A stretch of 64,000 bases of DNA from a virus. Of the stretch, positions 1,049 through 42,176 are shown in pieces. A program made the translations under genes and the position numbers. The stretch is from the IMG/VR virus record IMGVR_UViG_3300045988_095776, positions 1-64,000 of that record; one strand, given 5' to 3'. The notes beneath the pieces were generated by a model, which saw only the letters and a list, made by a program, of their open reading frames with translations, was not told the DNA's origin and searched no databases. The stretch's first letter is position 1, and the number at the start of each line of letters is the position of its first letter.

Positions 1049-2083
1049 ATGCCATACAATGTATTAGATGCTATCACAGCAGAAGAAAGATTAAATTTTG
1101 CTCAGAATTTTTCTGTAGCGAGACCTGGTATTCTTGATACCATTTTCCCGGATGTAAAAACACCGTATTGGAAAGCCGAGTATTACAGACTTATGGCTGG
1201 ACAGCGACTGCCAGAGGTAGCATTTGTTCACGCTCTTGATACTGAAGCAGAAATCGGCTCCAGACCGGGATTTGAGAAAGTTCTGACTGAAAAACTCTTT
1301 ATCAAGAGGAAAATCAATCAGTCCGAGCGTCTCCAGGAAGCTATCGAAAACGGTGTTCCAGATAATGAGACTCTCACAAACTTTGTTTTTGACGATGCCA
1401 CAAACCTGTTTGAAGGTGTTGTTGGAAGGGCAAACATCATGAAGGGTCAGTTCCTTTCAACCGGTATGGTAAAAATTGATGAAAACAATGTGAAAATGGA
1501 TATCGATTATGGCGTACCAAGTTCTGCAAAGGTCACTCTTACCAACTGGTCTACAGCAGATGCGGATATCATGGGCGATATTCAGAAGATGGTAACTGTA
1601 GCCGAGGATTCCGGATACGTAGTAACAAATGCAGTCACATCTCTGAAGATGATCAACTACATGAGAAACAACACAGCTATGCAGACAGCTGTTCTGGGAG
1701 CTGCGAATAAACGTCTCCTTACCAGACAGGAACTTGCAAATCTGCTCATGCAGGAGTACGGAATCACCGTTGGCCGTTGCGACGAGAAATTCCGTTACAG
1801 AAAAGCAGACGGAACTCTGATGACTGGAAGATACTTCAAAGAGGATGTGTTCACTCTCTACGAAGCTGATGCAGGCGGTTCCTTCGGTACTGGACTTTGG
1901 GGACCAACACCGGAAGAGAATGAATACAGACAGTTCATCCAGGAAGAGAATCGCTCTTTTGTTACTCTTTCCATGTGGGCTACACAGGATCCAGTTGCTG
2001 TTTGGACAAAAGCATCCGGTATGTTTATTCCGGTAGCACCGAAAGCCAACGGCGGTATCGTTATCGGTACAAAGGGGGAATAA
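1049..2083 (+). CDS. major capsid protein (lambda gpE-like)
   Basis: 344 aa, RBS AAGGAGG, position after scaffold/decoration genes; typical size and order. Confidence 0.75.
   Translation: MPYNVLDAITAEERLNFAQNFSVARPGILDTIFPDVKTPYWKAEYYRLMAGQRLPEVAFVHALDTEAEIGSRPGFEKVLTEKLFIKRKINQSERLQEAIENGVPDNETLTNFVFDDATNLFEGVVGRANIMKGQFLSTGMVKIDENNVKMDIDYGVPSSAKVTLTNWSTADADIMGDIQKMVTVAEDSGYVVTNAVTSLKMINYMRNNTAMQTAVLGAANKRLLTRQELANLLMQEYGITVGRCDEKFRYRKADGTLMTGRYFKEDVFTLYEADAGGSFGTGLWGPTPEENEYRQFIQEENRSFVTLSMWATQDPVAVWTKASGMFIPVAPKANGGIVIGTKGE
2071..2077 (+). promoter_or_regulatory. candidate -1 ribosomal slip site A_AAG_GGG at end of capsid ORF
   Basis: fits X_XXY_YYZ in the capsid frame, 4 nt before stop TAA 2081-2083; -1 frame stays open to 2286. 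Confidence 0.4.
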
Positions 2084-2286
2084 CCGGGCATAGTCTTGAC
2101 GAGAACAGCCAGTCACCAGCTGTAGCGAGTGTTGAAGATAATGATTTAACACATAAATACACAGAAAGCGAGCTGTCAAGCATGACTGTACCGCAGTTAA
2201 GACAGCTTGCGAGTGACAATGGCTATGCCCTGACTCAAACAAATAAGGCTGGCATAATCGCGGAAATTTTAACTCAACAAGGATAG
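2074..2286 (+). CDS. -1 frame ORF with Rho-N/SAP-like helix-extended-helix module; possible capsid C-terminal extension or 34-aa stand-alone peptide from ATG 2182
   Basis: no RBS-supported start; ends MTVPQLRQLASDNGYALTQTNKAGIIAEILTQQG. Confidence 0.4.
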   Translation, partial: GGITGHSLDENSQSPAVASVEDNDLTHKYTESELSSMTVPQLRQLASDNGYALTQTNKAGIIAEILTQQG

Positions 2287-2296
2287 GTGGTTTTGA

Positions 2297-2623
2297 ATGA
2301 ACGAAGAGCTTATTAATGATTTGATGAATTATTTATCTGATGACATAGAAAATCCTGAGATGGTTTCTCTATCTGTTAAACGGGCGATTCGTTCATTCAA
2401 GAAGAAGAGAAATTATCCTTCTGGTTATACAGACGAAAAAATTTGCAATGATATGGAAAACTGCTATGACTGTATATTTGACTTAGCACTTTTTTTTCTT
2501 GTAAAACAAGGTGCTGAGTTTCAAGGTTCGCATTCTGAATCTTCTGTAAACCGAAGTTGGGAATCTGAGACTGAAATCTATATCAATCATGGAGTTTTTC
2601 CATTTGCAGGAAGTTTGACATAA
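2297..2623 (+). CDS. head-tail connector / DNA-packaging adaptor (gp6-like)
   Basis: 108 aa, follows capsid gene; size and N-terminal acidic helix typical of connector family. Confidence 0.5.
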   Translation: MNEELINDLMNYLSDDIENPEMVSLSVKRAIRSFKKKRNYPSGYTDEKICNDMENCYDCIFDLALFFLVKQGAEFQGSHSESSVNRSWESETEIYINHGVFPFAGSLT

Positions 2624-2738
2624 AAAGATGGTTGGGACACGTGACGCACTATCAAGTCCTCCCGAAGCGTCGCTGGGTTGCTTTATTTTCGGATGGGAAG
2701 AAGCAAGAATCATGTAGGGAGTGAGAAATGGAGTGGCG

Positions 2739-3050
2739 ATGGGATGTGAACATGAATGTTTTAACGAACACCGCATAGAAGAACTTGAAAAAAATCTTCA
2801 ACAGATGCAGGAAAGACAATCCGAACGCCATAAGGAATTTTATGAGCGTATCGGAGAACTGGAAAGAAAAACTGCTTTAAGCGAGAATGATTTGAACCAT
2901 ATCAAGTCAACTTTGGATGAGATGAATAACAATATAAAGACTCTCATGGCAGTTCCAGGTAAACGCTACGACACAATCATTGTATGTATCATTACTGCGA
3001 TTGTTAGTGCAGCGGTAGGATTTATAATAAACGGTATTCTTCCAGTTTAA
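2739..3050 (+). CDS. XhlA-like coiled-coil protein with C-terminal membrane anchor
   Basis: coiled coil plus C-terminal TM (IIVCIITAIVSAAVGFIINGIL); start moved to ATG 2739 preceded by GGAG. Confidence 0.45.
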   Translation: MGCEHECFNEHRIEELEKNLQQMQERQSERHKEFYERIGELERKTALSENDLNHIKSTLDEMNNNIKTLMAVPGKRYDTIIVCIITAIVSAAVGFIINGILPV

Positions 3051-3074
3051 TTCCACTTGTACGGGAGGACGGTG

Positions 3075-3332
3075 GATATGAATTATACAGACTTTTCAGA
3101 AGATGAAAGAAAATATTATCTGAGTCAATCGGGATTTGATTCACGTGAAAAAGAATTTTTTCGGTTAAGAGTTTATGAGGAAAAAACTTTGCTTGAAGCA
3201 GCGGAGATTATGGGGTATAGCCCACGAACTATTGACCGAATAAATAGAAAAATTAAACAGAAAATTCAGAAAGTTGCCCCGTCTTATGAACGGGGCTTTT
3301 CTTTGTATTGTGGCGAAAATATGGCGAAATAG
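3075..3332 (+). CDS. small sigma-70 region-4-like HTH regulator
   Basis: RBS GGGAGGA; LLEAAEIMGYSPRTIDRINRKIKQKI resembles a sigma r4 HTH. Confidence 0.5.
   Translation, partial: DMNYTDFSEDERKYYLSQSGFDSREKEFFRLRVYEEKTLLEAAEIMGYSPRTIDRINRKIKQKIQKVAPSYERGFSLYCGENMAK
3276..3305 (+). terminator. rho-independent terminator-like hairpin inside the 3' end of the HTH ORF
   Basis: gccccg-tcttatgaa-cggggc followed by ttttcttt. Confidence 0.45.
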
Positions 3333-3388
3333 TGACGTTCAAATGAAGAGTTCCTTCCTATATAATGTAAGCATAAGGAGAAAACAAT

Positions 3389-3586
3389 ATGCTTATGTTA
3401 GAGAACCCTTATGAAGGTTTATGGGAAAAGCATCTGTCAGTTGATGACATGGATGTAATTCTCGAAGCAAAAAGAATGGGAGGAACAGACTATGGCAGGT
3501 TATCCGTATTACCCACAGCCAATTATAAACAATCCATACGGACAAATACAGCCGTATCAGGACAGGCTGGCACAATTGCAGAGTAA
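3389..3586 (+). CDS. hypothetical small protein (overlaps next gene by 95 nt; extent uncertain)
   Basis: strong RBS AAGGAGAAAA before ATG 3389, but overlaps the better-supported ORF 3492. Confidence 0.3.
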   Translation: MLMLENPYEGLWEKHLSVDDMDVILEAKRMGGTDYGRLSVLPTANYKQSIRTNTAVSGQAGTIAE

Positions 3587-3995
3587 CTATCAGCAGACAA
3601 TGCCATATGGACAAATGCAGATGCAACAACCCGTACAGCAAATACCACAAGTCCCAATGATACAAGGACAAATGGTTGATGGTATTGACACTGTAAAGGC
3701 GAAAGATGTGGATATGTCCGGTAATCCTGTTTATTATCCGAAGACAGACGGAACCGAAATCTACAGAAAACAGCTTCAATCCGATGGAAGAAGCAGGATC
3801 TTTGTTTACCGACTTGTAAATTCAGACGAACAGCAACCAAAACAGGAAGGAAAACAGATTGATATTGAAGCAATGTTTAAACAGCTTCATGATGACGTTT
3901 GCTCTGAGATTTCTGGAATAAAAGATTTGCTACCGACACAAATGTCGTTCACAAATGATTCCCCAAGACAGCAGAACGGAGGAAAACAGAGATGA
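3492..3995 (+). CDS. hypothetical Q/P/Y-rich protein
   Basis: RBS GGGAGGA 8 nt upstream; N-terminal 60 aa are Q/P/Y low complexity, globular C-terminal half. Confidence 0.7.
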   Translation: MAGYPYYPQPIINNPYGQIQPYQDRLAQLQSNYQQTMPYGQMQMQQPVQQIPQVPMIQGQMVDGIDTVKAKDVDMSGNPVYYPKTDGTEIYRKQLQSDGRSRIFVYRLVNSDEQQPKQEGKQIDIEAMFKQLHDDVCSEISGIKDLLPTQMSFTNDSPRQQNGGKQR

Positions 3996-4237
3996 GTTTC
4001 AATCCAAATGCCATGATGCAAAAACAAGTTGAAAAAATGATTTCTCAGAGGTTCGGAAGTGTTGATAACATGATGAACGATATGAGTAAATTTGCAGGAA
4101 ATAATCCAACATTGAAAAATGCTTTGGATTTGTATAAAAAAGGTGATACAGATCAGTTGCATCAAATACAGCAAAATGTATTTAACGAAAAGCACTTATC
4201 ACCAGATGGAATTATTCAAAAATTCCTTGGATTATAA
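3992..4237 (+). CDS. hypothetical protein
   Basis: ATGA start/stop overlap with upstream gene. Confidence 0.6.
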   Translation: MSFNPNAMMQKQVEKMISQRFGSVDNMMNDMSKFAGNNPTLKNALDLYKKGDTDQLHQIQQNVFNEKHLSPDGIIQKFLGL

Positions 4238-4333
4238 TACTTCCCCATAATTGGGTGATTCAAAATCGCTACAATTTGGGATGACAGCCGCGGATGTCTC
4301 CTATTGTAAATAAAATTTAAGGAGACTAAAAAC

Positions 4334-5146
4334 ATGATGAATGGTTCAAATTACAGTCTTAGTGACATCGCTGCCGCTACAGGCTCTAATAATCGCGCCA
4401 ATGATATGTGGGGCGGTGATGGTTTTTCACTTATCTGGCTCGTACTGATCTTCGCAATCTTCGGATGGGGAGGTTTCGGCGGCTGGGGCGGTGGCTTCGG
4501 TGGTAATGGTGGAAACGGTGCAAATGGCGCAGGATTCCAAGGATGGGCAACCCGTTCAGATATTAGCGAGAGTTTTGCTCTTAATGATATTCAGAACGGT
4601 ATCAGAGGCATTCAGCAGGGTATCTGTGACAGCACATATGCACTCAACAATACCATGCAGAGTGGCTTCAATGGCGTGAACGTTGGAATGCTTCAGGGCT
4701 TCAATGGCGTTCAGCAGGCAATTAACGCTGACACTGTAGCCAACATGCAGAACACAAACGCATTACAGTCTCAGTTAGCAAATTGTTGCTGCGAAACAAG
4801 GGAAGCTATCCAGGGTATCAACTACAACCTGGCAACCAACACTTGTGCTCTTCAGAACACAATGAACAACAATACCAGAGATATTCTGGACAATCAGAAC
4901 AGCAATACCCGTGCCATTCTTGATTATCTTTGCCAGAAAGAGACAGCAGACCTCAGAGCAGAGAATTCTGATCTGAAACGTGCTGCATCCCAGGATCGCC
5001 AGTCTGCACTGCTTACAACTGCTATGGCTTCACAGACTCAGCAGTTAATCAATGCAATTAATCCGGCAGCCATCCCGGCATACGTTGTTCCGAATCCGAA
5101 TACCTACTACGGCGGATGCAATGGATACAACAACGGTTGCTGCTAA
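4334..5146 (+). CDS. hypothetical membrane-anchored Gly/Trp-rich, N/Q-rich, Cys-tailed protein
   Basis: RBS AAGGAGA; TM helix then GWGGFGGWGGGFGGNGGNGANG; internal CCC; ends GGCNGYNNGCC; own terminator. Confidence 0.75.
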   Translation: MMNGSNYSLSDIAAATGSNNRANDMWGGDGFSLIWLVLIFAIFGWGGFGGWGGGFGGNGGNGANGAGFQGWATRSDISESFALNDIQNGIRGIQQGICDSTYALNNTMQSGFNGVNVGMLQGFNGVQQAINADTVANMQNTNALQSQLANCCCETREAIQGINYNLATNTCALQNTMNNNTRDILDNQNSNTRAILDYLCQKETADLRAENSDLKRAASQDRQSALLTTAMASQTQQLINAINPAAIPAYVVPNPNTYYGGCNGYNNGCC

Positions 5147-5177
5147 GTAACTCACCCTTAGAGGTTGACTAATTCTA

Positions 5178-5208
5178 AGAGGTGGGTTGCGGCTCACCTC
5201 TTATTTGA
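5178..5208 (+). terminator. rho-independent terminator
   Basis: agaggtg-N10-cacctct followed by tatttg. Confidence 0.6.
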
Positions 5209-5223
5209 TTGAGAGGTAGAAAT

Positions 5224-5649
5224 ATGAGTTGTAAAAATGTATGTTCGCTTTGTTCGAAACTGATTCTGTCAACGTCTGTATCGTTTACTGGGGGCAATCT
5301 TGTAATCACACTTCCGGCAGGCAGTTATTCCAATGGAGAAAAGTATTGCATTGTGATCGCACAAAGTATACCAGAAGCCACCACAATTACCGCCCCGGTA
5401 ATGATTCAGATAGGAACAGGAACAACTTTGTATCCGCTAGAGAATCGTTGCTGTGCACAGGTTACGGCTTGCGGAATAAGAACTAGAACGAAGTATGCAA
5501 CCAGAGTAGCTACAAGTGCAACTGGTGGAGTATTCAAGATGTTAGGAAATCCAGCTTGTAGTCCGAGTAACAATTTAACAGCAATTAATGGTACAGCCCC
5601 AACGACAGACACACCTGTTACACAGGCTGTTAGAAAGGGGGCACTGTAA
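5224..5649 (+). CDS. hypothetical Cys/Thr-rich protein
   Basis: RBS GAGAGG before ATG 5224; MSCKNVCSLCSK... N-terminus. Confidence 0.6.
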   Translation: MSCKNVCSLCSKLILSTSVSFTGGNLVITLPAGSYSNGEKYCIVIAQSIPEATTITAPVMIQIGTGTTLYPLENRCCAQVTACGIRTRTKYATRVATSATGGVFKMLGNPACSPSNNLTAINGTAPTTDTPVTQAVRKGAL

Positions 5650-6275
5650 TGCATAAAGTTGCAATGGAAATGGGAAAATGGGCTATGGAAAAAGCCAAAA
5701 CACATGGCTTCGACAATCTCAGTGCTCAAGACTGGGACGATCTGAAAGACTGTATGGAATCCGTAAAGTGCGCGATTTGTGCAGATAAAGATTACAGAAT
5801 CGTAGAAGCCATGGACGAATGTGAACAGGAAGAGAAGTATCTTGGACGCATGGGATACGACAGATATCGTTATTCCAACGGCAGATTTGCTCCAAAAGGC
5901 AGAGGAAGCCGTATGGGATATAAACCATATCTGTACATGGAAGATGATGACTGGATGGACGAGTATCTGAACAATCCAGAGTTTGAACGCAATATGTACC
6001 GCATGGGATATCATCCAGATCGTAGTGATATGAGGATGGATGGAATGAACCATAAGCAGTCCAGATACGGTGAAACCTACGACAGATACAGCGAAAATCG
6101 CAGGCATTACCACGATTCCAACGACACGGAATCCAAAAAGAAAATGGACGAGTCCATGAAAGAGTATACACAAGATGTTATCCGCACGATGTCTGAGATG
6201 TGGTCGGATGCAGACGCAAATCTTAAGCAGCAGATAAGAACTGATCTGACCCGTCTGATACAGCAGATGAATTAA
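5649..6275 (+). CDS. hypothetical acidic/aromatic protein with three RMGY repeats
   Basis: TAATG overlap with upstream gene; RMGY occurs 3 times; D/E/R/Y/H/M-rich. Confidence 0.65.
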   Translation: MHKVAMEMGKWAMEKAKTHGFDNLSAQDWDDLKDCMESVKCAICADKDYRIVEAMDECEQEEKYLGRMGYDRYRYSNGRFAPKGRGSRMGYKPYLYMEDDDWMDEYLNNPEFERNMYRMGYHPDRSDMRMDGMNHKQSRYGETYDRYSENRRHYHDSNDTESKKKMDESMKEYTQDVIRTMSEMWSDADANLKQQIRTDLTRLIQQMN

Positions 6276-6294
6276 CAAATAAGAATTAAATTTA

Positions 6295-6327
6295 GTCCTT
6301 GTTGCAGAAATGTGACAGGGACTTTTT
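6295..6327 (+). terminator. rho-independent terminator
   Basis: gtccttg-N14-cagggac followed by ttttt. Confidence 0.6.
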
Positions 6328-6344
6328 AATTACGGAGATTGATT

Positions 6345-6671
6345 ATGGAGAAATGCAAAATAAATGTTCTTGGAACGGATTACAGAATTATTCCGAAAGA
6401 ATTAAAAAATGCAGATGTTGATGGTTATACAGACAATACATCAAAAGAAATTGTCATTAGAATAGACAATGCGAATAATGTTGGAGATTTTGATTTCTTA
6501 CAGAAAAAACAGTTGAGGCATGAAATTATTCATGCATTCTTGTCGGAAAGCGGATTGCAGTGTAATTGGCAACATACAGAACAGTTCGGACATGACGAAA
6601 CTACTGTTGACTGGTTTGCAATTCAATCTCCAAAGATTTTTGAAGTATTCAAAGAGCTTGATTTAATTTGA
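6345..6671 (+). CDS. small HExxH metallopeptidase (ImmA/IrrE-like)
   Basis: motif HEIIH; RBS ACGGAG before ATG 6345. Confidence 0.55.
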   Translation: MEKCKINVLGTDYRIIPKELKNADVDGYTDNTSKEIVIRIDNANNVGDFDFLQKKQLRHEIIHAFLSESGLQCNWQHTEQFGHDETTVDWFAIQSPKIFEVFKELDLI

Positions 6672-6689
6672 AAAGGATGGTGATAAACC

Positions 6690-7076
6690 ATGCTAAGACA
6701 ATTCTATATGAACGGGGACTTATGGAAAGTCCGCTTTGTTTCGCCTTATGATAGTGTTTTAATTGACCGTACAGGGCAGAGGACACTTGCGGTATCAGAT
6801 TATTCTACAATGACAATTTCGATCGCAAATAATTTGTACGGAGAACTTCTGAACCGGGTGTTTATTCATGAGTTAGGACATTGCGTGATGTTCAGCTACG
6901 GCCTATTGCCAGAACTTCACCGCATGGTTAAAAAACGGTATTGGGTCGAAGCAGAGGAATTTGTGTGCAATATGCTTGCCGATTATGGATGCTTTGTAAT
7001 TGGTGTTGCAAAAGATATTTTAGGAAACCAGTTCACATATGTGGCTCCTATCGGGGCAGAAAGGATGATTGCATAG
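6690..7076 (+). CDS. small HExxH metallopeptidase (ImmA/IrrE- or SprT-like)
   Basis: motif HELGH; RBS AAAGGATGG. Confidence 0.55.
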   Translation: MLRQFYMNGDLWKVRFVSPYDSVLIDRTGQRTLAVSDYSTMTISIANNLYGELLNRVFIHELGHCVMFSYGLLPELHRMVKKRYWVEAEEFVCNMLADYGCFVIGVAKDILGNQFTYVAPIGAERMIA

Positions 7077-7319
7077 ATGGCAAAAGCAGAAAACACAGTT
7101 ATTTTTGATGGAATCAAGTACAATCCCGGTGAGGAATTGCCAGATTTAGGCAGTTGGGTATGTACAGGGGCAAAAGGCATGGTTCGTGATTATGAAGGCC
7201 TGTCAAAGGACGTATCGAAACTTCCACATTACGTACAAAGCGGTTCTTCGGCGTTGTGTCTTGATACTTCTGAATTGTACGAATATCACAAACCTACCGA
7301 TACATGGTACAAACTGTAG
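7077..7319 (+). CDS. small tail-fibre-cluster protein
   Basis: 80 aa, starts directly after the upstream stop; ...GSSALCLDTSELYEYHKPTDTWYKL type C-terminus common next to fibre genes. Confidence 0.55.
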   Translation: MAKAENTVIFDGIKYNPGEELPDLGSWVCTGAKGMVRDYEGLSKDVSKLPHYVQSGSSALCLDTSELYEYHKPTDTWYKL

Positions 7320-7332
7320 GAGGGCGTGGAAT

Positions 7333-7665
7333 ATGGCATTAACAGCGAAAAAAGTATATGCGGTTTTAAGCAGCAAGATTAAGGCTATGGAAGAAAAAAT
7401 GAAGCAGCCGATCACTTATAAAGGAAAAGTAGATACGGTTGATTTACTTCCATTAAGCCCGTCAATTGGTGATATGTACAACATCAGTCAGGCTTCTATA
7501 TATGGTGGTGCAAACACCAATGTTGTATGGAATGGCACGATATGGGATTCATTAGGCACTATTACGGATGTGACAGACGAACAGGTACAAGAAGCTGTTA
7601 ACCAATTTTTAACTCAGAACCCTATCGCACCGACATTGACAGATGATGGTGTTCTTATCTTGTAA
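7333..7665 (+). CDS. tail-fibre tip-like protein
   Basis: start at ATG 7333 after GGAGGG; motif LPLSPSIGDMYNI...VVWNGTIWDSLG; ends DDGVLIL. Confidence 0.55.
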   Translation: MALTAKKVYAVLSSKIKAMEEKMKQPITYKGKVDTVDLLPLSPSIGDMYNISQASIYGGANTNVVWNGTIWDSLGTITDVTDEQVQEAVNQFLTQNPIAPTLTDDGVLIL

Positions 7666-7680
7666 CAGAGGGAGATTAAA

Positions 7681-7998
7681 ATGCGTATATTAAAATTTAT
7701 CGTAAACAAACAAAAGATAAGACCAGACCCGAATTGCGATTTTAGTGGTTTGGTAAAAGGCACGTCGGGGTACTTAAAAGCATCGTTCTCGTTTTCGCCA
7801 GAATGGAATGGGTGCAAAGTTGCTGCATCGTTCTGGAGAATGGATCACGAATACCCAGTCCTTGTTCAAAATGGACAGTGCGAAATTCCGCCAGAAGCAT
7901 TGTCATGGGATTATTTTTCTTTATCCCTCATGGGGATGAAGGACAATGGCAAATATATTTTAACAACAGACAAAATATTAGTATCTCAAAAGGGGTGA
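7681..7998 (+). CDS. hypothetical fibre-cluster protein
   Basis: RBS GAGGGAG; same-strand gene train. Confidence 0.55.
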   Translation: MRILKFIVNKQKIRPDPNCDFSGLVKGTSGYLKASFSFSPEWNGCKVAASFWRMDHEYPVLVQNGQCEIPPEALSWDYFSLSLMGMKDNGKYILTTDKILVSQKG

Positions 7999-8007
7999 TG
8001 AATACAC

Positions 8008-8655
8008 ATGGCAACAGCTTACGAAATGCTCTTAGAGTCCCAGACAACAGAAGATTCTACTGCAAATGCCGGTGATGTATGCCTGATTAGCCCTGATACA
8101 CGACGGATTATAATTCCAGAAACACTTGTAATTGGCGGTGTAGAATCGGATAAAAATTCCGAGCGAATAAAGTTTTCATGTCCCAAAGTGGTTGGAGATA
8201 ATCTGGATTTATCAGAATTTCAAATCAGAATAAATTTCAGAAATATCAGCGCAACAATACCGCCGATAATTGTTAAAGATCAGTATATCTGCGAAGATGT
8301 AACTGTAGATGGTGACAATATTTCATTTTCATGGTTGATCGGACGAAATGCTGCGAAGAATAGAGGAATCTTACAGTTTATTGTGTGTGCAGTAAAGGTA
8401 AATTCGGATTCAGAAATCCTGATTGAGTGGAATACCACCTTGACGCAGTTAGAAGTACTTGAAGGTATTGAGGTAGGTGAAGTACAGCCTACCGAATCAG
8501 AAAAAGATGTGATTGCACAGCTCTTGAAAATAACAAAAGAAACATCTGACCAAGCAGTGACAGCGGTAAACGAAGCAAAGAAACAGGCACTCAAAGAAAT
8601 CGAAACAGCAAAAGTACTTCCTCGTCTTAGCGATGATGGCGTACTTATTTTTTAG
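8008..8655 (+). CDS. hypothetical fibre-cluster protein
   Basis: 215 aa; ends LSDDGVLIF, the same tail motif as 7333-7665. Confidence 0.6.
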   Translation: MATAYEMLLESQTTEDSTANAGDVCLISPDTRRIIIPETLVIGGVESDKNSERIKFSCPKVVGDNLDLSEFQIRINFRNISATIPPIIVKDQYICEDVTVDGDNISFSWLIGRNAAKNRGILQFIVCAVKVNSDSEILIEWNTTLTQLEVLEGIEVGEVQPTESEKDVIAQLLKITKETSDQAVTAVNEAKKQALKEIETAKVLPRLSDDGVLIF

Positions 8656-8666
8656 GAGGTTAGAGA

Positions 8667-10331
8667 ATGGCAGATTCTATTTTAAAAATACGTACACAAG
8701 ACGGGGATAAACCCATAGGCTATCCGGGACTTGCGGATAAGCCCGTAGCGAACAAAACACTTGATATCGAGGGTGCATTCGCAGATGCTAAAGTAGTAGG
8801 GGACAAATTCAAAGAAGTAAAGGCAGAAACTGATTCGCTAAAGGAAGGTATGGGTGATTTGTCTGTTGGCAACTATATCATCAGCCTAGATTACCATAGT
8901 GGAAAAATCAACCTATCAACTGGGGAAGAAGTTGCACCATATGACACAGCACGGATTTCTGAAAAACTCAATTTTGACAATTATGAAAGTGTAATTGTCG
9001 GAACAACTGCAAGTAAAGACTCAGACTATTGGTTATATATTTCAGTATTTGAATTTGATTCATCTGGGAAATATATCAAACAAATTGCAAATACACTTGA
9101 TAAATATACTATAACTCCAACGAATGGACATTTATATGTTTTGCAATGGTGGTATGGTGGTAATGATTTTAAAAATAGGCTTCCATATACAAAGGTTTCG
9201 GCAAAGTCCTTGCTTAATAAAAAAGATAAAGAAAAAATTTATATAGATTTATCTCCAAAAACAGAAGCAAAACTAGATTTGCCGGATAAATTATTTATCG
9301 TAAAAGGAGAAAGCCTTGAACTGTTTAAATATGGGATGTACTACACTGATACTGAATTTATAAATAATCAGTATAATGTACGTGTTGTAAATATTGACAA
9401 ATATACTACGCAATACGATGATAAAATTGTTATTTCGTGCCCTAAAGATTATTCAAAACCAATTTTACAAGGGGACAATGATTTAGCATTATTCCAATTG
9501 ATTGACACTTACGGTAAAATAATTGAACAAAAGCGTGTAAAAATTTTTGTCGCTGATAAAGCTACTATATCAGATACTGATAGAAATATTATGTATCTTG
9601 GTGATAGCTTTACAGGCTTAGGATTCAGAACACAAGAAATTGCGAATCTTATCTCGCAAGAACCAAAATTATCTAATACAAAATTAATTGGAAAATTTAT
9701 TGGACAGGGTAGCGGAAATAGGTTTACAGGAACAGGCGGTTACAGTTGGGCGAATTATACTGAAAACCCTAATACATTACCTAGTACGTTCCCAAATAAT
9801 TATTTGTGGGATCCAGCCTATAACCAAATCAGTATGCAATACTTAGTAAACTCTTTAGGAGAAAGCCATCTGGAATATGCCGTTATTTTGCTAGGGTGGA
9901 ACGACTACGAAAGTGGAGCGTTTGCACCATCTTTCAGTTGGGATGTTATGAAACAACGTGCCAAAAAAGTAATAGAAAATATTCATAATTATTATCCTAC
10001 TTGTAAAATTATTTTAGAAAGTTATCACTATATGTATCCATTACACAGAAAGTCATATGGCAATGCATTACCACAAGTAAGACAAAACAAATATATTTAT
10101 GAACTAAATAAATTTTATCAAGAAATTGCAAATGAATATGATTATGTTGAATTTGTTCAAATGTCCATTCAGATTGATGTACTTCACAATATGGGATTCG
10201 AAGAAGAAAAAGTAAATAAACGAAGTGAAGAAATTGTCAAATATTGCAAAGATGTTGTTCACCCAGCTGACATTGGTTTTTATCAGTATTCAGACGCAGA
10301 ATTTAATGCACTGTTGTATCTTATGCAGTAA
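8667..10331 (+). CDS. tail fibre / receptor-binding protein with C-terminal SGNH (GDSL) esterase domain
   Basis: N-terminus LDIEGAFADAKVVGDKF is fibre-like; YLGDSFTG, LLGWNDY and DVVHPAD match SGNH blocks I, III and V. Confidence 0.65.
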   Translation: MADSILKIRTQDGDKPIGYPGLADKPVANKTLDIEGAFADAKVVGDKFKEVKAETDSLKEGMGDLSVGNYIISLDYHSGKINLSTGEEVAPYDTARISEKLNFDNYESVIVGTTASKDSDYWLYISVFEFDSSGKYIKQIANTLDKYTITPTNGHLYVLQWWYGGNDFKNRLPYTKVSAKSLLNKKDKEKIYIDLSPKTEAKLDLPDKLFIVKGESLELFKYGMYYTDTEFINNQYNVRVVNIDKYTTQYDDKIVISCPKDYSKPILQGDNDLALFQLIDTYGKIIEQKRVKIFVADKATISDTDRNIMYLGDSFTGLGFRTQEIANLISQEPKLSNTKLIGKFIGQGSGNRFTGTGGYSWANYTENPNTLPSTFPNNYLWDPAYNQISMQYLVNSLGESHLEYAVILLGWNDYESGAFAPSFSWDVMKQRAKKVIENIHNYYPTCKIILESYHYMYPLHRKSYGNALPQVRQNKYIYELNKFYQEIANEYDYVEFVQMSIQIDVLHNMGFEEEKVNKRSEEIVKYCKDVVHPADIGFYQYSDAEFNALLYLMQ

Positions 10332-10555
10332 TTAACTAAAGAGGGCTTTAGTTAACGAAAAAATCTCTCATAAATTCGCTAAAATATCTATTCAGATAGA
10401 ACGAACAGTGCTATAATCACTATAACAGAACACAAAAAAGAGGAGCTGGACTCCCGACTACCAATCAAAAAGTCCAACTCCAAGCACCACAAAGGGTACG
10501 GGTATATTATAGCACAGTACTCTCCCTTTGTGAACCCAAAAGGAGGGTATTTTTT

Positions 10556-11551
10556 ATGAGAGAAAAATTTTTGAATGGGTTCATGACAAAACTGTATGGA
10601 GAAATTCCGGAAGAGTATCTGGAAACGATCAAAAACAAACTGGCGTTGTATGTAAATGATTTTGATATCAGTCAAAGGGAAACTGCAGTTGTAAAGTATA
10701 CTGGATATTTACCAGATTTCTACAAAACTTACATTGTAAGTAGGAAAATCGAGAGTTTGAGTAAAAAGACACTCGAACTCTACAATCTTTATCTGGATGA
10801 TTTCTTTTTTACAGTCAATAAAAACGCAGAAGACATTACTGCAAATGATATCCGCGTATATCTGTATAACGCTCAGGAGAGCAGAGGATTAAGTAATCGA
10901 ACGCTTGATAGTAGAAGAACTGCCATACACGCTTTCTTTGAGTGGGCTGCAAATGAGGGATATATAGGCAAGAATCCGTGCAGAGTTATCGAAAATATCA
11001 AGTATGAACGTGTAGAGAAGAAACCTCTGACAGATATGGAGTTGGAGAGAATCAGACAGGTATGCGAAACGGTACGCGAAAAAGCACTGGTTGAATTTCT
11101 GTACAGTACCGGAGCCAGGGTTACAGAAGTGTGTGGTGTGAAGAAAACAGATATAGACTTCTACAAAGGTGAAGTGATTGTTTTGGGGAAAGGAAATAAG
11201 CATAGAAAAGTATACCTAAATGCTCGCAGCAAACTTCTTTTAGGACAGTACCTTACATCCAGAGATGATGATTCGGAATATCTTTTTGTAAGTGAAAGAA
11301 AACCACATAATGTATTGAAAAAAGAAGCAATTGAAAGAAACATTCGACTGATAGGTGAACGGGCAGAACTGGATAGACCGTTAACGCCACATCTATTCAG
11401 ACATACCCTTGCGACGCTTATGCTTCAGAGGGGAACTCCTATCACGGAAGTACAGAAGATTTTAGGGCATGTAAATATCAACACGACCATGATTTATGCC
11501 AAGGTGTCAGACGAAGATGTAAAAGCATCTCATATGAAATATGCAATTTAA
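10556..11551 (+). CDS. tyrosine recombinase / integrase (XerC/D-like), full length
   Basis: ARVTE (R), HLFRHT (HxxR), GHVNINTTMIYAKV (H..Y); RBS GGAGGG. Confidence 0.85.
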   Translation: MREKFLNGFMTKLYGEIPEEYLETIKNKLALYVNDFDISQRETAVVKYTGYLPDFYKTYIVSRKIESLSKKTLELYNLYLDDFFFTVNKNAEDITANDIRVYLYNAQESRGLSNRTLDSRRTAIHAFFEWAANEGYIGKNPCRVIENIKYERVEKKPLTDMELERIRQVCETVREKALVEFLYSTGARVTEVCGVKKTDIDFYKGEVIVLGKGNKHRKVYLNARSKLLLGQYLTSRDDDSEYLFVSERKPHNVLKKEAIERNIRLIGERAELDRPLTPHLFRHTLATLMLQRGTPITEVQKILGHVNINTTMIYAKVSDEDVKASHMKYAI

Positions 11552-11610
11552 AGAGAATTTCGATTCTCTTTTCAATTGCAAAAAAATATTTATGTAAATA
11601 AAAAAATAGA

Positions 11611-11641
11611 ATATGGGGAGGATTAATAGTCCTCCCCATAT
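11611..11641. terminator. bidirectional hairpin between convergent genes
   Basis: atatggggagg-N9-cctccccatat, perfect 11-bp stem. Confidence 0.6.
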
Positions 11642-11663
11642 TCTTAATCATTGAATGAAATTG

Positions 11664-11894
11664 TCAGTATTCATTTGCATCTTCTTTCTTAGAAATAACA
11701 AATGTTTTTATTTTTTTTGATCCAGGAACGTCACCATCGTCAATATGCTTGGCCATACGAAGCATAGACCTTATTTTGGATGAAGACAGATGCTCCTTGC
11801 CGCAGTTCGGACACATTATTTTTTCCGTGTTAATTTGTTCGTTTACGTAATAGTTGCAATTACAAGTGCAATGGACTTTTAATTTTAAAAACAT
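11664..11894 (-). CDS. small zinc-ribbon protein
   Basis: 76 aa, CTCNC...CPNCG; RBS GGGAGGTG upstream on the minus strand. Confidence 0.6.
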   Translation of the reverse strand: MFLKLKVHCTCNCNYYVNEQINTEKIMCPNCGKEHLSSSKIRSMLRMAKHIDDGDVPGSKKIKTFVISKKEDANEY

Positions 11895-11968
11895 TTTGCG
11901 ACACCTCCCTAATAGGTTGATTGTACCACAGTGTATGAAGATATGCCATAGAGTTAAGGCTAAAAGGA

Positions 11969-12139
11969 TTAAAACTCTTTTCCTCTTTTACAAAAATATT
12001 CGTTCAAAGCCCGTTCGACTACCTGTGATATTTCTTTTTCCTCTTTCTGGCAATGAAACAGAAGATGTATGTACTGCACAGGGGTTAATTTAATTTTTAC
12101 GCTGATATTTCTTTCGTCTTTCTTTTTTATAGCAATCAC
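11969..12139 (-). CDS. ribbon-helix-helix-like small protein (56 aa, GTG start uncertain)
   Basis: not in ORF track (<60 aa); NISVKIKLTPVQYIHLLFHCQKEEKEISQVVERALNEYF has an RHH-like pattern; start codon poorly defined. Confidence 0.35.
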   Translation of the reverse strand: MIAIKKKDERNISVKIKLTPVQYIHLLFHCQKEEKEISQVVERALNEYFCKRGKEF

Positions 12140-12214
12140 CTCCCCATATAACTATATCATGCAGTATTTGTTAAAGTAAGTAATATATAAAGTATTATTT
12201 CGAAAGGAATCGAC

Positions 12215-12604
12215 ATGAGAGGATTAAAACGTCAAAAACAGACAGTGTATTGGTCAAAAGTAACTGAAATTCTTAACGATATTAATACAGTTACGAAATA
12301 CAGTAAACCAGAGTTGCACAATTTCTCTGTATCGGCAACTGCCGGAACCCCGGAGGAGATATCGTCCGGTATCGTGCCTGACTATGATAGATACATCACT
12401 TCTTTTGATCGTGAATTTAGGCCACAGGAAGGAGATGTATTTTGGATTGATACAGTCCCCGAATTAGACTACGCAGGAGATCTTATTCTGACAGACAGTG
12501 TTCCAACTATCATGCCAGATTACCGGTTAAAAAAGATTTTGGATACTCAACGGGGGAATATTGCCAGATACGGAATTTCGAGAATAGGAGCTGAAAATGA
12601 GTAA
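12215..12604 (+). CDS. head-tail joining protein (head-closure/adaptor-like)
   Basis: 129 aa; size and position; overlaps the next gene start. Confidence 0.45.
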   Translation: MRGLKRQKQTVYWSKVTEILNDINTVTKYSKPELHNFSVSATAGTPEEISSGIVPDYDRYITSFDREFRPQEGDVFWIDTVPELDYAGDLILTDSVPTIMPDYRLKKILDTQRGNIARYGISRIGAENE

Positions 12605-13115
12605 AAAGATAATCAAGTGCGGATTAAGTCAGAAGTCAATTCAGGATGCAATAGATCAACTCAAAGTTTATCAAACTGAATTAAACAACAAGAATGAGTT
12701 ATTTGTTAAACGGCTATCTGAACTTGGACTTGAAGTTGTACAGACTACAATGGAATCAATACCGGATGAGGAAAAAGGAAGTTATTACACTGAAATTATC
12801 TATGACAAACAGGGCAATATAATTGGTTCTTCTATACGATTGTCAGGAAACAATGTACTTTTTATCGAATTTTCGGCAGGAATAACGTATGGGACGAATG
12901 ATTATCCTTTACCTAGCGGAAATTCTTACGGAATGGGGACGTATCCTTCCAAAAAAGAAAAATCAGACTGGGACAATCCAAATGGTTGGTGGTACACAGA
13001 TGAAAGCGGACAGTCACACCATTCGTACGGAAATAGAGCGTATATGCCGATGTATCACGCAGAACAAGCTATTGTTATTGCTGTTCGTAAAATCGCTAAG
13101 GAAGTTTTTGGTTAA
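12597..13115 (+). CDS. head-tail joining protein (HK97 gp10-like)
   Basis: 172 aa, overlapping start; N-terminal pattern I.CGLS...I..AI.QL resembles the gp10 family. Confidence 0.45.
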   Translation: MSKKIIKCGLSQKSIQDAIDQLKVYQTELNNKNELFVKRLSELGLEVVQTTMESIPDEEKGSYYTEIIYDKQGNIIGSSIRLSGNNVLFIEFSAGITYGTNDYPLPSGNSYGMGTYPSKKEKSDWDNPNGWWYTDESGQSHHSYGNRAYMPMYHAEQAIVIAVRKIAKEVFG

Positions 13116-13318
13116 TTTTTTATCCACTCAATCCGATAACCAACGATATTTAAAATTTCCTCGATTTCAGAATACGAAAAAGTTTCTTTTCTGAAACGAT
13201 TGCTAAAATTTTGAAACGTAAAGCTTGTTCCGTGCCTGCGATTTAATTCATCGTTAACTTGGCTCATAGTAAACCCTTGTGAAATAATTATTGCTTTTAA
13301 TTTGGATTTTAGTTCCAT
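13112..13318 (-). CDS. small HTH DNA-binding protein (moron)
   Basis: 68 aa on the opposite strand inside the late operon; ISQGFTMSQVNDELN HTH-like. Confidence 0.5.
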   Translation of the reverse strand: MELKSKLKAIIISQGFTMSQVNDELNRRHGTSFTFQNFSNRFRKETFSYSEIEEILNIVGYRIEWIKN

Positions 13319-13445
13319 AAAATACTCCTAGTGATTATTTGTTAAATTATAACATTATAAATATAAATTGTAAATTTTAATCTTCTTGAAAAATAAATTA
13401 TATAGTTTATAATTAAATTAAACAATTTATATAGGAGATGATTGT

Positions 13446-14330
13446 ATGCCAAGACCTACGCCTGACTTTACTGGAATGAAATTCGGAAAATTAACTGCCC
13501 TTTACAGAATTAAATCGGAAAAAACTACAGGTAGTGGAAAACATGCTATGTGGATGTGCAAATGTGATTGTGGGAATGCCAAAATCATAAGTTCCACAAG
13601 GCTTGCACATGGAAAGATAGATAATTGTGGGTGCATGGATTCTAAATGTAGGAATAAAAAAGGACAATTTACAAAGGGTGAAAATGTAAAAGATATTTCT
13701 GGTAAGAAATTTGGAAAATTAACAGTACTGAAATTAGATAAAATTGTTAATAGAAAATCTTATTGGATTGTAAAGTGCGAGTGCGGAACAATAAAAACGG
13801 TAAGAAGTGATACTCTTAAAGTTATTACTTCTTGCGGATGTGACAAGAAAAAACAAGATATTATTAATTTCGACATAACGAATCACCATGAATTGACCCA
13901 CCATCCTGTTTACAGCATATGGAATGCAATGATTAATAGATGTGAAAATCCACATAATAAGAATTACAATAATTATGGTGGACGTGGCATTAAAATTTGC
14001 GAAGAGTGGAAGGATATACGAAATTTTTCAAAATGGGCTGATGAAACCGGATTTGAATTAGGCAAAAACCTTTCTATCGAAAGAAAGGATGTGAACGGTA
14101 ATTATTGCCCCGAAAATTGTTGCTGGATTGACAGAAAATTGCAATCTCGCAATAGAAGAAATACCGTTAGACTTGATATAAACGGAGACAATAAATCACT
14201 TTCAGAATGGTGCGAAGTATACAATGTACCATATAAAAAAGTTATTGGAAGATATTATAGGGGAATACGAGAAATAGATGATTTATTTTATAAAGGCAAT
14301 TTGCAGATGAGAGATTTAGGAAGAGAGTAA
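13446..14330 (+). CDS. free-standing DNA-binding / homing-endonuclease-like protein
   Basis: two FGKLT..-W.CKC.CG...SCGC zinc-ribbon repeats plus YNNYGGRGIKICEEW motif; very AT-rich flanks. Confidence 0.45.
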   Translation: MPRPTPDFTGMKFGKLTALYRIKSEKTTGSGKHAMWMCKCDCGNAKIISSTRLAHGKIDNCGCMDSKCRNKKGQFTKGENVKDISGKKFGKLTVLKLDKIVNRKSYWIVKCECGTIKTVRSDTLKVITSCGCDKKKQDIINFDITNHHELTHHPVYSIWNAMINRCENPHNKNYNNYGGRGIKICEEWKDIRNFSKWADETGFELGKNLSIERKDVNGNYCPENCCWIDRKLQSRNRRNTVRLDINGDNKSLSEWCEVYNVPYKKVIGRYYRGIREIDDLFYKGNLQMRDLGRE

Positions 14331-14951: not shown

Positions 14952-15245
14952 ATGGAACAGATTCTGAGCTATGTAAAACCAGAACTTCTGACTGTTGCAG
15001 TAGTCCTGTATTTTGCAGGAGTATTTTTAAAGCAGACAGAAACAGTATCCGACAAATACATTCCTGGAATTTTAGGAGTCCTTGGAATGGTAATTTGTGG
15101 AATTTATGTATTTGCAACATCTACCGTATCTAACGGGCAGGAAATTGCAATGGCGGTATTTACCGCTATCACACAGGGAATTCTTGTCGCAGGATTAAGT
15201 AATTATGTAAATCAGATTATTAAGCAAGCAAGCAAAGAAGAATAG
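14952..15245 (+). CDS. phage holin (LL-H / phi-LC3-like family)
   Basis: 97 aa, three hydrophobic segments, YVKPELLTVAVVLYF...KYIPGILGVLG...ITQGILVAGLSNYVNQIIKQ, charged C-terminus. Confidence 0.65.
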   Translation: MEQILSYVKPELLTVAVVLYFAGVFLKQTETVSDKYIPGILGVLGMVICGIYVFATSTVSNGQEIAMAVFTAITQGILVAGLSNYVNQIIKQASKEE

Positions 15246-16768: not shown

Positions 16769-18325
16769 ATGGCCGATAATACCATAGATACCCTCAATAT
16801 ACAAATAGGCAGTAGCACAACTCAGGCGGTACGGTCTATTAATAACCTTGTGAAAAAATTAGATACATTAAACACTGCCCTTGGAAATCTTGACATAAGT
16901 CGGTTAAATAATTTTTCCAATTCTTTAAAAAGTTTAGGTAGCGTGAATTTTAAAGCAAATGGATTGAATGCGGCTATAAACGCCATCAATCGTCTTGGTA
17001 AATCTGATTTTAGCCAGTTTGATACAGGAAAATTAGGTGAAATTCTTACTGAGATGCAGAAACTTGATTCTATTCCAGATGTTTCTCCGAGCGTTAGCCG
17101 GTTCACGACCGCTATAGCTAAACTTGCCGGTACAGGACAGTATATCGGCAATGTATCAAAGGAACTTCCGAATCTTGCGACAGGTTTAAATAATGCGTCT
17201 ACTAAATTAGGCTCTATGAGCGAAGTATCAGCATCCACCAATGCTTTTATTACTTCTCTTGGAAAATTAGCTAGTGCAGGAGATAAAACTGGAAAGACTG
17301 CAAATCAATTATCAACTCTCGCGCAAGAGGTTTTGAAGTTTTTTGACGTAATGAAAAGCGCACCAGATATCAGTTCGAGCACAATAAGAATGACAGAGGC
17401 ATTGGCTGTACTTGCTTCGTCTGGAAGTAAAGTCGGAAGAGCTACAAGCAGTGTTTCAAGCTCACTCAATAATTTGTCGTCTGTTGGCTCTAAAGTCAGT
17501 TCCGTAATGCATGGTGTTGCTAATGCGTTCCAGGCTTTTGCTTCAAAAACAATATCTCTTGGGGCAAAAGTAGTATCAGCCATAGCCGGAATAGGCAATG
17601 CTTCGTCCGAAACAGGTGAAAAAATAAGAAAACTGTCAAATCCGTTAAGCTCATTGACAAATAAGTTGAGTGCTTTATATGCAAAAGGATTTTTAGTAAA
17701 ACGGGCCCTTGAAGTTTTATCATCGCCTGTAGAATCTGCGATGAATTACGTAGAGACTTTGAATTATTTCAACTCTGCATTTAATCAAGTTGCAGAAGGA
17801 ATCGACACAGACGAATGGAAGAAGAGCGGTATTAAATCCGCAGAAGCATATGCCAATTCATTTCAAGAGAGAGCAAAACAACTTTCTCAGAAATTGACAG
17901 GATTTGAAATTTCCGATACTGGGGAACTTACTAGAACAAATACTGCAAGCCTTGGACTTGACCCTGAAAAGGCCATGCAGTATCAGGCAACATTCGCACA
18001 GATGTCATCATCTATGGGCGATACCTCCGAGACTGCATTGAAGTTGTCAAATGCTTTGACAATGATTGGTTCTGACCTTGCATCTGTAAGGAACATGGAT
18101 TTTGAAGATGTATGGGAAGACATGGCATCCGGATTGACTGGCATGAGCCGTACAATGGACAAGTATGGCATCAATATCCGTAATGCCAATATGCAACAGG
18201 AATTATACAATCTGGGAATCAACACCAGCATATCAAATTTATCTCAGGCAGATAAAACGATCTTACGTACAATTATTTTGCTGAATAATTCTAAATATGC
18301 ATGGGGTGATTTGGCTAATACGATT
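16769..18325 (+). CDS. tape measure protein, exon 1 (519 codons)
   Basis: RBS AAAGGAGG; S/A/L-rich helical repeats; standard-code ORF runs into the insert and stops at 18341. Confidence 0.7.
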
Positions 18326-31709: not shown

Positions 31710-31722
31710 TGACTTTGAATAA

Positions 31723-42174: not shown

Positions 42175-42176
42175 TT

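Follow-up and report, generated by a model that had tools for sequence, protein, structure and literature searches.

The region between the adaptor-like and stopper genes

The DNA analysed here is a 64,000-nt stretch of a virus (IMG/VR record IMGVR_UViG_3300045988_095776, positions 1 to 64,000; hereafter the window), which covers most of an approximately 78-kb siphovirus-like genome from the human gut. The region in question (2624–12214) is located between an adaptor-like head-tail connector gene on its left flank (2297–2623, plus strand, 108 amino acids (aa)) and the gene of a stopper, or head-completion, protein on its right flank (12215–12604, plus strand). In SPP1- and HK97-like phages, adaptor and stopper genes are normally adjacent. 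The initial annotation regarded the intervening 9.6 kb as a recombinase-bearing island organised as a unit of its own, which could be a hitch-hiking integrative element, a captured second late-region fragment or an exchangeable host-range cassette. The open reading frames (ORFs) it described were found in place, and their content largely agrees with that annotation. Comparison with related loci, however, divides the region into a conserved block of 4.4 kb and a hypervariable slot of 5.1 kb, the latter harbouring fibre genes and the gene of a tyrosine recombinase (int, 10556–11551). The most sharply defined swappable unit is the distal part of one fibre gene (8850–10331).

The identity of the flanking genes was assessed with AlphaFold2 models and Foldseek searches of the PDB. 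The product of 12215–12604 gave a confident beta-barrel model (predicted local distance difference test (pLDDT) 85.5), which matched the stoppers of phage 812, T1 and SPP1 (gp16) with a probability of 0.99–1.0 (template modelling (TM) score 0.44–0.56, E = 6e-3 to 7e-2). The model of the 2297–2623 product is all-helical (pLDDT 82.7). Its top fold match, the adaptor gp6 of HK97, is weak (E = 1.1, probability 0.44, TM 0.41–0.45), while position and size fit an adaptor. The designation of the flanks as head-tail joining genes holds in view of the stopper fold on the right, and the weak HK97 gp6-like match on the left is compatible with it. No family was assigned to 2297–2623 in Pfam and PHROG profile searches. 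A PDB sequence search with both neck proteins gave no match, and a word-indexed homology search retrieved only close unannotated relatives of both. According to the structure predictions of both flanks, the adaptor-like gene and the stopper gene are truly 9.6 kb apart.

Two scans of IMG/VR yielded 160 related loci on contigs of mostly 40–85 kb, which were searched by tblastn with every protein of the window. The genes at 2721–6275 and 6690–7076 were found in 144 to 151 of 161 related loci with a median identity of 77–91%, which makes the 2721–7076 block as conserved as the capsid protein (median 84.5%). The block is always located between adaptor and stopper. The distance between these two genes never falls below 3.9 kb, and they are adjacent in none of the relatives. 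Within the block, 6339–6671 is itself facultative (33 of 161 loci). All genes of the block are encoded on the plus strand. Their products comprise an XhlA-like protein (2721–3050; PHROG 'hemolysin', 3e-12), a sigma-r4-like helix-turn-helix protein (3057–3332; Sigma70_r4), Q-, G- and Cys-rich proteins and two HExxH proteins, the motifs of which (HEIIH in 6339–6671, HELGH in 6690–7076) were recognised by inspection of the translations. A Pfam search with the latter two proteins gave no family. Terminator-like hairpins are located at 5176–5203 and 6294–6323. In these details, namely the XhlA-like, sigma-r4-like and HExxH proteins and the internal terminators, the initial annotation was correct. 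Small variable spots occur in the core block (5147–6671). For example, a near-identical genome (L245, 3178–5531) carries an antisense RHH_3 gene and two genes for proteins of about 340 aa instead of 5209–6275.

The genes at 7077–11894 are patchily distributed among the 161 loci. Of these, 86 contain the first slot gene (encoding an 80-aa anchor), 46 the recombinase, 12 the fibre gene 8667–10331 and 6–8 the antisense genes. Where both borders are present (122 loci), the end of the 6690–7076 homologue and the stopper start are 0 to 6.5 kb apart. An overlap of the border genes, GCATGAGAGG, was found in 25 loci (11 distinct sequences shown). In this empty site, the ATG of the stopper gene overlaps the stop codon of the 6690–7076 homologue (TGA/ATG overlap, ATGA). 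Exactly 5138 nt separate the same two genes in the window. Neither a duplication nor a repeat marks the junction of the empty site (7077–12214). The absence of att-type repeats noted by the initial annotation was reproduced, since no direct or inverted repeats above chance level were found at the island ends or around int. The presence and identity pattern, the distances and the empty sites identify 2721–7076 as a lineage-specific core of 4.4 kb and restrict the variable slot to 7077–12214 (5.1 kb).

The view that 2624–12214 as a whole is a single hitch-hiking integrative island or a captured second late-region fragment draws on the recombinase and the internal terminators it contains and on the established SPP1/HK97-like gene order, in which adaptor and stopper genes are neighbours. 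It is extremely improbable, because the left 4.4 kb accompany every relative at core-gene identity, no att repeats were found, empty sites exist solely for 7077–12214, and the recombinase, the antisense gene pair and the fibre genes vary independently. The 9.6 kb do not behave as one presence/absence unit bounded by att repeats. For the hitch-hiking element in particular, the left genes in 144–151 of 161 loci and an adaptor that is never next to the stopper refute it, and no support was found for a captured late-region fragment. For the left half, this refutes the island on the terms set by the initial annotation itself. The slot is absent in 25 loci. What remains of the earlier proposals is the exchangeable host-range cassette, which applies to 7077–12214 in view of the empty sites, the precise cassette borders and the clean swaps described below, but not to 2624–7076.

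Fibre genes of the slot

The slot of the window begins with the gene of an 80-aa N-terminal fibre anchor, type A (7077–7319, plus strand), which is 93–97% identical in 86 loci and, in some relatives, fused to long fibres. It is followed on the same strand by a 110-aa type-A anchor stub ending in TLTDDGVLIL (7333–7665; a gene call in near-identical contigs), whose N-terminus is homologous to 500–900-aa fibres of relatives. The next gene encodes a small protein of 105 aa (7681–7998; phrog_19695). Members of its family (F1) precede a B-type fibre in 28 distinct slot ORFs. Further downstream, a 215-aa type-B anchor stub ending in RLSDDGVLIF (8008–8655, plus strand) is homologous to the first approximately 215 aa of B-type fibres of 600–900 aa, and the last fibre gene (8667–10331, plus strand) encodes a type-C fibre with an SGNH/GDSL esterase-like distal part. 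The window slot therefore contains two short anchor stubs ending in L(T/S)DDGVLI(L/F) and one full type-C fibre. The initial annotation had described an SGNH-esterase fibre. A Pfam match to Lipase_GDSL_2 was indeed obtained (E = 1.5e-6), but its score of 29.3 bits is slightly below the Pfam cut-off of 32.9. Precomputed Pfam results also assign this family to several related fibres, to a 456-aa variant (L244) with an unmarked match (E-value ≤ 1e-5) and to a 554-aa fibre (L245) with one marked 'weak'. The type-C fibre has a conserved N-terminus of 25 aa, after which the motif 'TL.IEG..A.AK' is repeated, as in full-length B-type fibres. Together with the common end of the two stubs, this points by inspection to a split fibre, whose single distal protein might dock onto two different anchors.

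Across 86 distinct slots, fibre-like proteins of up to 895 aa are the dominant family. They have three or four mutually unrelated N-terminal anchor types: type A starts with 7077–7319, type B corresponds to 8008–8655, type C to the start of 8667–10331, and type D is rarer. The distal parts fall into at least 40 mutually unrelated types and include SGNH/GDSL esterase, pectate-lyase-like and M14 peptidase domains. Some fibre C-termini resemble, by inspection, the variable regions of diversity-generating retroelements (DGRs). Other slots hold a tyrosine recombinase, or a reverse transcriptase and an avd-like gene, the latter two thus being placed in relatives within the fibre slot itself. In the window, a DGR is located at 41569–44700, with a reverse transcriptase gene (43343–44362, RVT_1), an A-rich template repeat (43172–43247) and variable repeats (42060–42135 and 42662–42737) at the 3' ends of two genes encoding 201 aa each, the first of which (41569–42174) has a sub-threshold DUF6273 match. 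Since genomes with an empty slot exist, the slot fibres are accessory, and the gene position between adaptor and stopper suggests that they might be neck or head appendages.

Borders of the distal cassette

The swappable distal (receptor-binding/esterase) cassette of the type-C fibre (8850–10331, plus strand, 1482 nt) extends in frame from a junction site, J, to a palindrome, P. The left border J (8835–8849, plus strand) reads TCGCTAAAGGAAGGT, encodes SLKEG and has one mismatch to the consensus TCRCTAAAGGAAGAY, which is in frame and specifies the peptide S-L-K-E-D. Its codons (TCR-CTA-AAG-GAA-GAY) are near-invariant on all of the three to four unrelated anchor types. One exact copy of the consensus per locus was found in 188 loci, and J is present as a single copy in the 64-kb window. 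Nucleotide homology between fibre genes begins precisely at J. Type-A anchors have a second 'SLK' upstream, encoded mostly by other codons.

The right border P (10332–10355) consists of TTAACTAAAG-AGGG-CTTTAGTTAA, directly follows the fibre stop codon and contains stops in all three frames. Its general form is a perfect 24-bp palindrome, TTAACTAAAG-N4-CTTTAGTTAA, with fixed arms and a variable 4-nt centre. One copy is found in the window, where 0 are expected by chance. P occurs once per locus in 75 loci and was also found in more than 118 viral contigs, many of them about 45 kb long and with no detected homologue of the genes flanking the slot in the window. Its position coincides with or adjoins the stop codon of either the last fibre gene or a small gene that follows. 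Unrelated fibre ends adjoin P on the left, and at least four different modules on the right, namely the ribosome-binding site (RBS) of the stopper gene, the leader of int, int preceded by a 63-aa ORF, or a further fibre gene. P folds as a DNA hairpin (z = −5.3) and can be read as two 9-bp arms around a 6-bp spacer (9-6-9; TTAACTAAA-GAGGGC-TTTAGTTAA). The consensus of J, written as TTCRCTAAAG-GAAG-AT(T/A)TAG..AA, resembles P in both arms. A function of P as intrinsic terminator is unlikely, as the stem is AT-rich and not followed by a T-run, and in int-less relatives the conserved and co-oriented stopper gene, with its RBS, begins right after it.

Exchange of cassettes between genomes

Cassettes with these exact borders were found transferred across anchors. 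The same distal module occurs on different anchors in the pairs L020/L098 and L031/L052, in which homology does not exceed noise upstream of J and amounts to about 95% from there on. Clean and recent swaps are seen among the window and ten contigs of independent metagenome samples, which encode a 100% identical recombinase protein. These 11 genomes carry five unrelated J–P cassettes (1482, 1188, 2121, 1380/1383 and 1124 nt), which in pairwise comparison are either approximately 100% identical or without any BLASTN match, and the 1300 nt after P are 99.9–100% identical. Two of the genomes compared (L250 and L253) carry unrelated cassettes, although their mismatches to the window follow the same pattern over 2.5 kb upstream and two positions distinguish them in 4 kb downstream. 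In several swapped genomes (e.g. L248 and L253), no single-nucleotide polymorphism (SNP) was found within approximately 1.2 kb upstream and 1.4 kb downstream.

Transfer also extends across phage families. In a 45.5-kb contig that has nothing else in common with the window in its flanks, the cassette of the window recurs with 99% identity (protein), and here the DNA match stops inside P, just after the spacer. In another locus (L053), the sequence left of J is fused precisely to that right of P, a deletion product which leaves a 172-aa anchor stub. Among 22 distinct sites retaining only the left arm of P, eight keep the AGGG/CCCT spacer and a C before they diverge (0.17 expected). When P is read as 9-6-9, these half-P breakpoints are located at the border of spacer and arm. 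The left border of the paralogous recombinase module described below is likewise a half-P (...CCC-ATTTAGTTGATTAA).

The recombinase module and its paralogue

The tyrosine recombinase encoded by int (10556–11551, plus strand, 331 aa) is intact. It matches PF00589 (E = 1.6e-39), contains an N-terminal SAM-like domain, the catalytic residues R188, H279, R282, H305 and Y314 and a lysine loop (GKGNKHR), and is full-length as initially annotated. The gene is under strong purifying selection (median dN/dS 0.07, 45 distinct sequences). In relatives, int is always the last slot gene, on the plus strand and 14–45 nt before the stopper gene, and all homologues in the 161 loci have the same orientation. 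Together with a predicted antisense small RNA, it forms a separate module of 1.2 kb immediately 3' of P, the left border of which is P or half-P. In the window and its closest relatives, an additional 0.66 kb comprising an antisense gene pair and a terminator is located between int and the stopper gene. The gene is absent from many relatives, and elsewhere 3' remnants always abut the downstream gene.

A 5'-truncated paralogue (28411–29187, plus strand; 48% identical, first 72 residues missing) is encoded between the main tail-fibre genes and the endolysin gene. Its leader and first 72 codons were lost by a deletion starting at the conserved module border (ttcctcttccca), and the remnant directly abuts the endolysin gene. 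At this position, relatives have full-length, 98%-identical copies with the same leader. In other contigs, the paralogue-type recombinase occupies the slot. Homologues of int are furthermore found in Terrisporobacter phage TPELB_ph1 and Clostridium phage phiCp-D, in both cases after the last fibre gene and before the holin/endolysin genes. Each of these phages has its own palindrome between fibre gene and int, which abuts the fibre stop codon in TPELB_ph1 and is located just upstream of the int start in phiCp-D. The latter phage also encodes ParM.

A role of int as lysogeny integrase was considered and rejected. The exact protein was found in 87 blocks of contigs, never on a contig above 200 kb, and the best match in 185,579 species genomes was 33% identical. 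It was thus seen in no chromosome-sized contig of these collections, from which host genomes may be missing. Its N-terminal part shows a SAM-like domain only, where an arm-binding domain would be expected of a temperate-phage integrase, and in relatives int is 14–45 nt from the next late gene. The recombinase is not the integrase of an island. A large serine recombinase with Resolvase, Recombinase and Zn_ribbon_recom domains is encoded elsewhere in the window (57518–59188) and is likely the true integrase. An integrated copy of the phage was not seen.

Predicted antisense RNA and antisense genes

On the minus strand, a small RNA (10432–10534) overlapping the 5' leader of int is predicted from a promoter, a covarying hairpin and a U-run. 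The promoter (10534–10506) has a near-consensus extended −10 element. In the hairpin stem (10442–10481), 98.7% of the cells are paired and 7 of 10 pairs show compensatory changes, while none of 500 shuffles was as good. G-U pairs occur only when the minus strand is read. Promoter, hairpin and U-run on this strand together predict an RNA of approximately 67 nt, antisense to the int leader. An Rfam search gave no match. The leader (about 135 nt) is more conserved than the int protein, across clades down to 47–56% identity, and the putative antisense RNA is conserved upstream of every examined clade of the recombinase family. The leader was also considered as a recombination site. Its conservation is better explained by the convergent promoter and the terminator of the antisense RNA, and the window contains one copy.

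A strong hairpin terminator with a 15-bp stem and a T-run (11608–11644) separates int from the antisense two-gene add-on, which consists of a ribbon-helix-helix (RHH)-like gene (12139–11969, minus strand; by inspection) followed by a gene for a CxxC Zn-ribbon protein (11894–11664, minus strand; weak Pfam match to Zn_ribbon). This pair had been recognised as such in the initial annotation. Another minus-strand ORF (11478–11651) is probably spurious, as it overlaps int and the terminator. A DNA copy of the antisense pair with 81% identity is found in the 46-kb fecal phage record MT835739, where it is differently placed relative to the homologue of 4334–5146. The pair could be a moron or a toxin-antitoxin-like module.

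Possible mechanism of cassette exchange

The best-fitting reading of 7077–12214 is an accessory, hypervariable fibre (receptor-binding/depolymerase) locus for host-range cassette exchange, and the chances are about even that the linked recombinase is its enzyme. The slot is located between two genes that are translationally coupled when it is empty, inside the lineage-specific block separating adaptor and stopper. Each fibre consists of a conserved N-terminal anchor and a distal module acting as cassette, which begins in frame at J and ends at P with a stop in every frame. P and the P-like J might represent core sites of a tyrosine recombinase, with 9-bp arms around a 6-bp spacer (in sites of the lox, dif or FRT type, two inverted arms of 9–13 bp surround a spacer of 6–8 bp, at the borders of which exchange takes place). 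The cassette would be swapped when co-resident phage genomes recombine site-specifically at both borders (J x J and P x P). The module 3' of P, with int and its putative antisense RNA, would provide the enzyme in cis or in trans. The architecture, the exact borders, the clean swaps, the breakpoints at the spacer border and the intactness of and selection on int are shown by the comparisons; catalysis by int, in cis or from a co-resident phage, is inferred. A natural form of recombinase-mediated cassette exchange, in which an antisense-RNA-controlled int acts on the 9-6-9 P and the P-like J and so brings about in-frame swaps of receptor-binding domains across families, is possible, with chances somewhat short of even.

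Several observations weigh against int as the exchange enzyme. About half of the P-bearing slots do not contain the recombinase gene and 5'-truncated remnants are common, so that int is dispensable in cis. Neither a hybrid with P on the left and J on the right nor a tandem cassette array was found in 529 loci, and the J x P deletion was seen just once (L053). The spacers of J (GGAAGA) and P (GAGGGC) differ, which would hinder a classical tyrosine-recombinase exchange between J and P. Furthermore, the phage encodes RecT (40620–41567), which is able to recombine short identities, and P might have another role, e.g. as a protein-binding or RNA element. Two other modes of site-specific exchange were considered. 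Integron-like insertion of circles is disfavoured, as the hybrid sites with P left and J right that it predicts are absent from the 529 loci. Shufflon-type inversion is excluded for this genome by the lack of inverted repeats, the single P and the lack of any flipped relative. A 19-nt inverted repeat (10120–10138 and 11668–11686) is at chance level.

The same cassettes could be exchanged by general or RecT-type homologous recombination at J and P acting as short linkers, with the recombinase as a passenger. Rad52/RecT-like recombinases are known to generate phage mosaics at short identities. Such an exchange would account for the variation of cassettes in int-less slots and would fit the frequent decay of int and the presence of a recT gene in the phage. 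Where the anchor type is shared, it would find long flanking homology, as in L249 and L252, in which SNPs reach right up to J. This main rival is less likely, as it leaves unexplained the perfect palindrome formed by P and its variable spacer, the resemblance of a coding site (J) to a non-coding one (P) in both arms and the repeated breakage of P exactly after the 6-bp spacer. Moreover, just 15–24 nt of identity are available across anchor types or phage families. Still less probable is that int and the small RNA are a selfish or housekeeping add-on without a role in cassette exchange, either for Cre/Xer-like multimer resolution or cyclisation of an episomal prophage or as an integrative module landing at P or at the end of late fibre genes. 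The presence, absence or decay of the module among close relatives, its two alternative positions and the lack of any sign of chromosomal integration (no contig >200 kb; best genome match 33%) agree with this explanation, as do the separate large serine recombinase (57518–59188), the ParM encoded by phiCp-D together with an int homologue and the tyrosine recombinase of unknown role inside the structural module of Tyroviruses (PMC9703825). On the other hand, the module is always positioned immediately after a receptor-binding gene in several phage families, a linkage for which resolution has no need, and its left border is P or half-P. Many relatives of complete length apparently have no copy in the vicinity of the slot, which would be odd if resolution were essential.

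Comparison with known systems

The locus shares with integrons a tyrosine recombinase adjoining promoterless exchangeable cassettes, each of which ends in an imperfect or perfect palindrome, and a huge cassette repertoire on a constant platform. In contrast to the attC-ended arrays of integrons, one cassette and one P are present per locus, and hybrid sites of the kind that circle insertion leaves were not found. The left site is in frame inside a coding sequence, the cassette being a domain rather than a whole gene, and P measures 24 bp compared to 57–141 bp for attC. The recombinase gene is co-oriented and downstream, whereas intI is divergent and next to attI. In shufflons (Rci acting at sfx repeats, R64 PilV) and in the G segment of Mu and the C segment of P1 (Gin and Cin), a recombinase gene is likewise found directly 3' of an adhesin or fibre gene, whose C-terminal receptor-binding part is replaced in frame by way of a short conserved site. 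Gin and Cin belong to the serine recombinases. In those systems, alternative segments kept in cis are inverted, while here the exchange is between genomes. The 64-kb window has a single P and a single J without alternative segments, and no significant inverted repeats were found in 1800–13600.

Modular exchange of receptor-binding proteins at conserved anchor or linker sequences is known from tailspike phages of Klebsiella and E. coli and from the variable regions of S. thermophilus phages, which are flanked by collagen-like repeats. A conserved N-terminal anchor, swappable distal domains with enzymatic or binding function and horizontal transfer between unrelated phages are shared with the locus studied here, which differs from the systems described there in borders defined at the nucleotide level, consisting of a 15-nt in-frame site and an all-frame-terminating palindrome that resemble each other, in breakpoints at the spacer border and in a linked, putatively regulated tyrosine recombinase. 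DGRs serve the same biological end, the diversification of the receptor-binding tip, but mutagenise a fixed scaffold, whereas the exchange described here substitutes entire domains.

Tyrosine recombinases of unknown role have been described in structural modules of other phages, namely Tyrovirus gp50 and those of Psychrobacillus phage Perkons and of the Lactococcus 949 group (PMC9703825). The Tyrovirus-type enzymes are Xer-like and co-oriented with the late structural genes, as here, and a nearby palindromic site has been proposed (PMC9703825). Tyrovirus gp50 is encoded between neck and tape-measure genes and conserved in all members (PMC9703825), while int comes after fibre genes, is facultatively present and is linked to the border of a cassette. 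The literature searched contained no description of J or P, and no fibre-linked tyrosine recombinases beyond the Tyrovirus report (PMC9703825) were found. The same search retrieved neither an in-frame junction site paired with a look-alike, all-frame-terminating palindrome, nor such sites common to several phage families, nor breakpoints at a spacer border, nor a fibre locus linked to a tyrosine recombinase under antisense control. The chance that the locus represents a new class of site-specific host-range diversification system is substantial.

Implications for host range

The understanding and use of gut phages are limited above all by their host range. The lineage described here and its allies are abundant in human gut metagenomes, with hundreds of contigs found, and their receptor-binding domains change as discrete, precisely bounded cassettes on otherwise identical genomes. 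The J and P borders, which are common to several phage families, offer a ready-made standard for fibre engineering and a marker for following host-range switching in metagenomes. If the linked recombinase is the enzyme, it would constitute a new viral class of site-specific diversification beside invertible fibre segments and DGRs, and might suggest a role for the tyrosine recombinases in the structural modules of other Firmicutes phages (PMC9703825). J and P would then serve a guild of Firmicutes phages of the human gut as a common 'socket standard'.

Other features of the genome

The left end of the window encodes scaffold, decoration and capsid proteins (7–2083). The nearest cultured relatives of the capsid protein are found in Lactobacillus and Brevibacillus siphoviruses (about 32% identity), and among the phage records of GenBank, only an unannotated fecal scaffold of 6 kb is close. 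The stopper gene and the one following it are small (12215–13115). Downstream, between the neck genes, an HNH endonuclease is encoded (13446–14330), preceded by a 21-nt inverted repeat (13361–13381 and 13412–13432). A homologue was found in just 44 of the 161 loci, mostly with about 39% identity, and the gene looks like a mobile homing-type insertion. The genes for tail tube, chaperones and tape-measure protein are located after the HNH gene. A 97-aa holin-family protein (14952–15245; PF16079 in identical relatives) is encoded between the neck and tail-tube genes, and the XhlA-like protein (2721–3050) directly after the adaptor gene, so that both lysis-type membrane proteins are found among structural genes, distant from the endolysin (29194–30594).

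The tape-measure gene is split into two parts (16769–18343 and 18574–21753) with a gap of 230 nt, which match consecutive parts of phrog_28918 (positions 1–196 and 198–914). In near-identical relatives, it is a single ORF of 1553–1911 aa or occurs in other split forms. The split could be due to an intron, another insertion or a frameshift. A tail fibre of 1637 aa is encoded at 22950–27863. The part of the window after the endolysin gene contains a repressor/antirepressor region, RecT, the DGR and a methylase. After the endolysin gene, at 30726–34471, genes for a LytTR response regulator, a Big_2 protein and a cI-like repressor were found, the last facing a Bro/ORF6C antirepressor.

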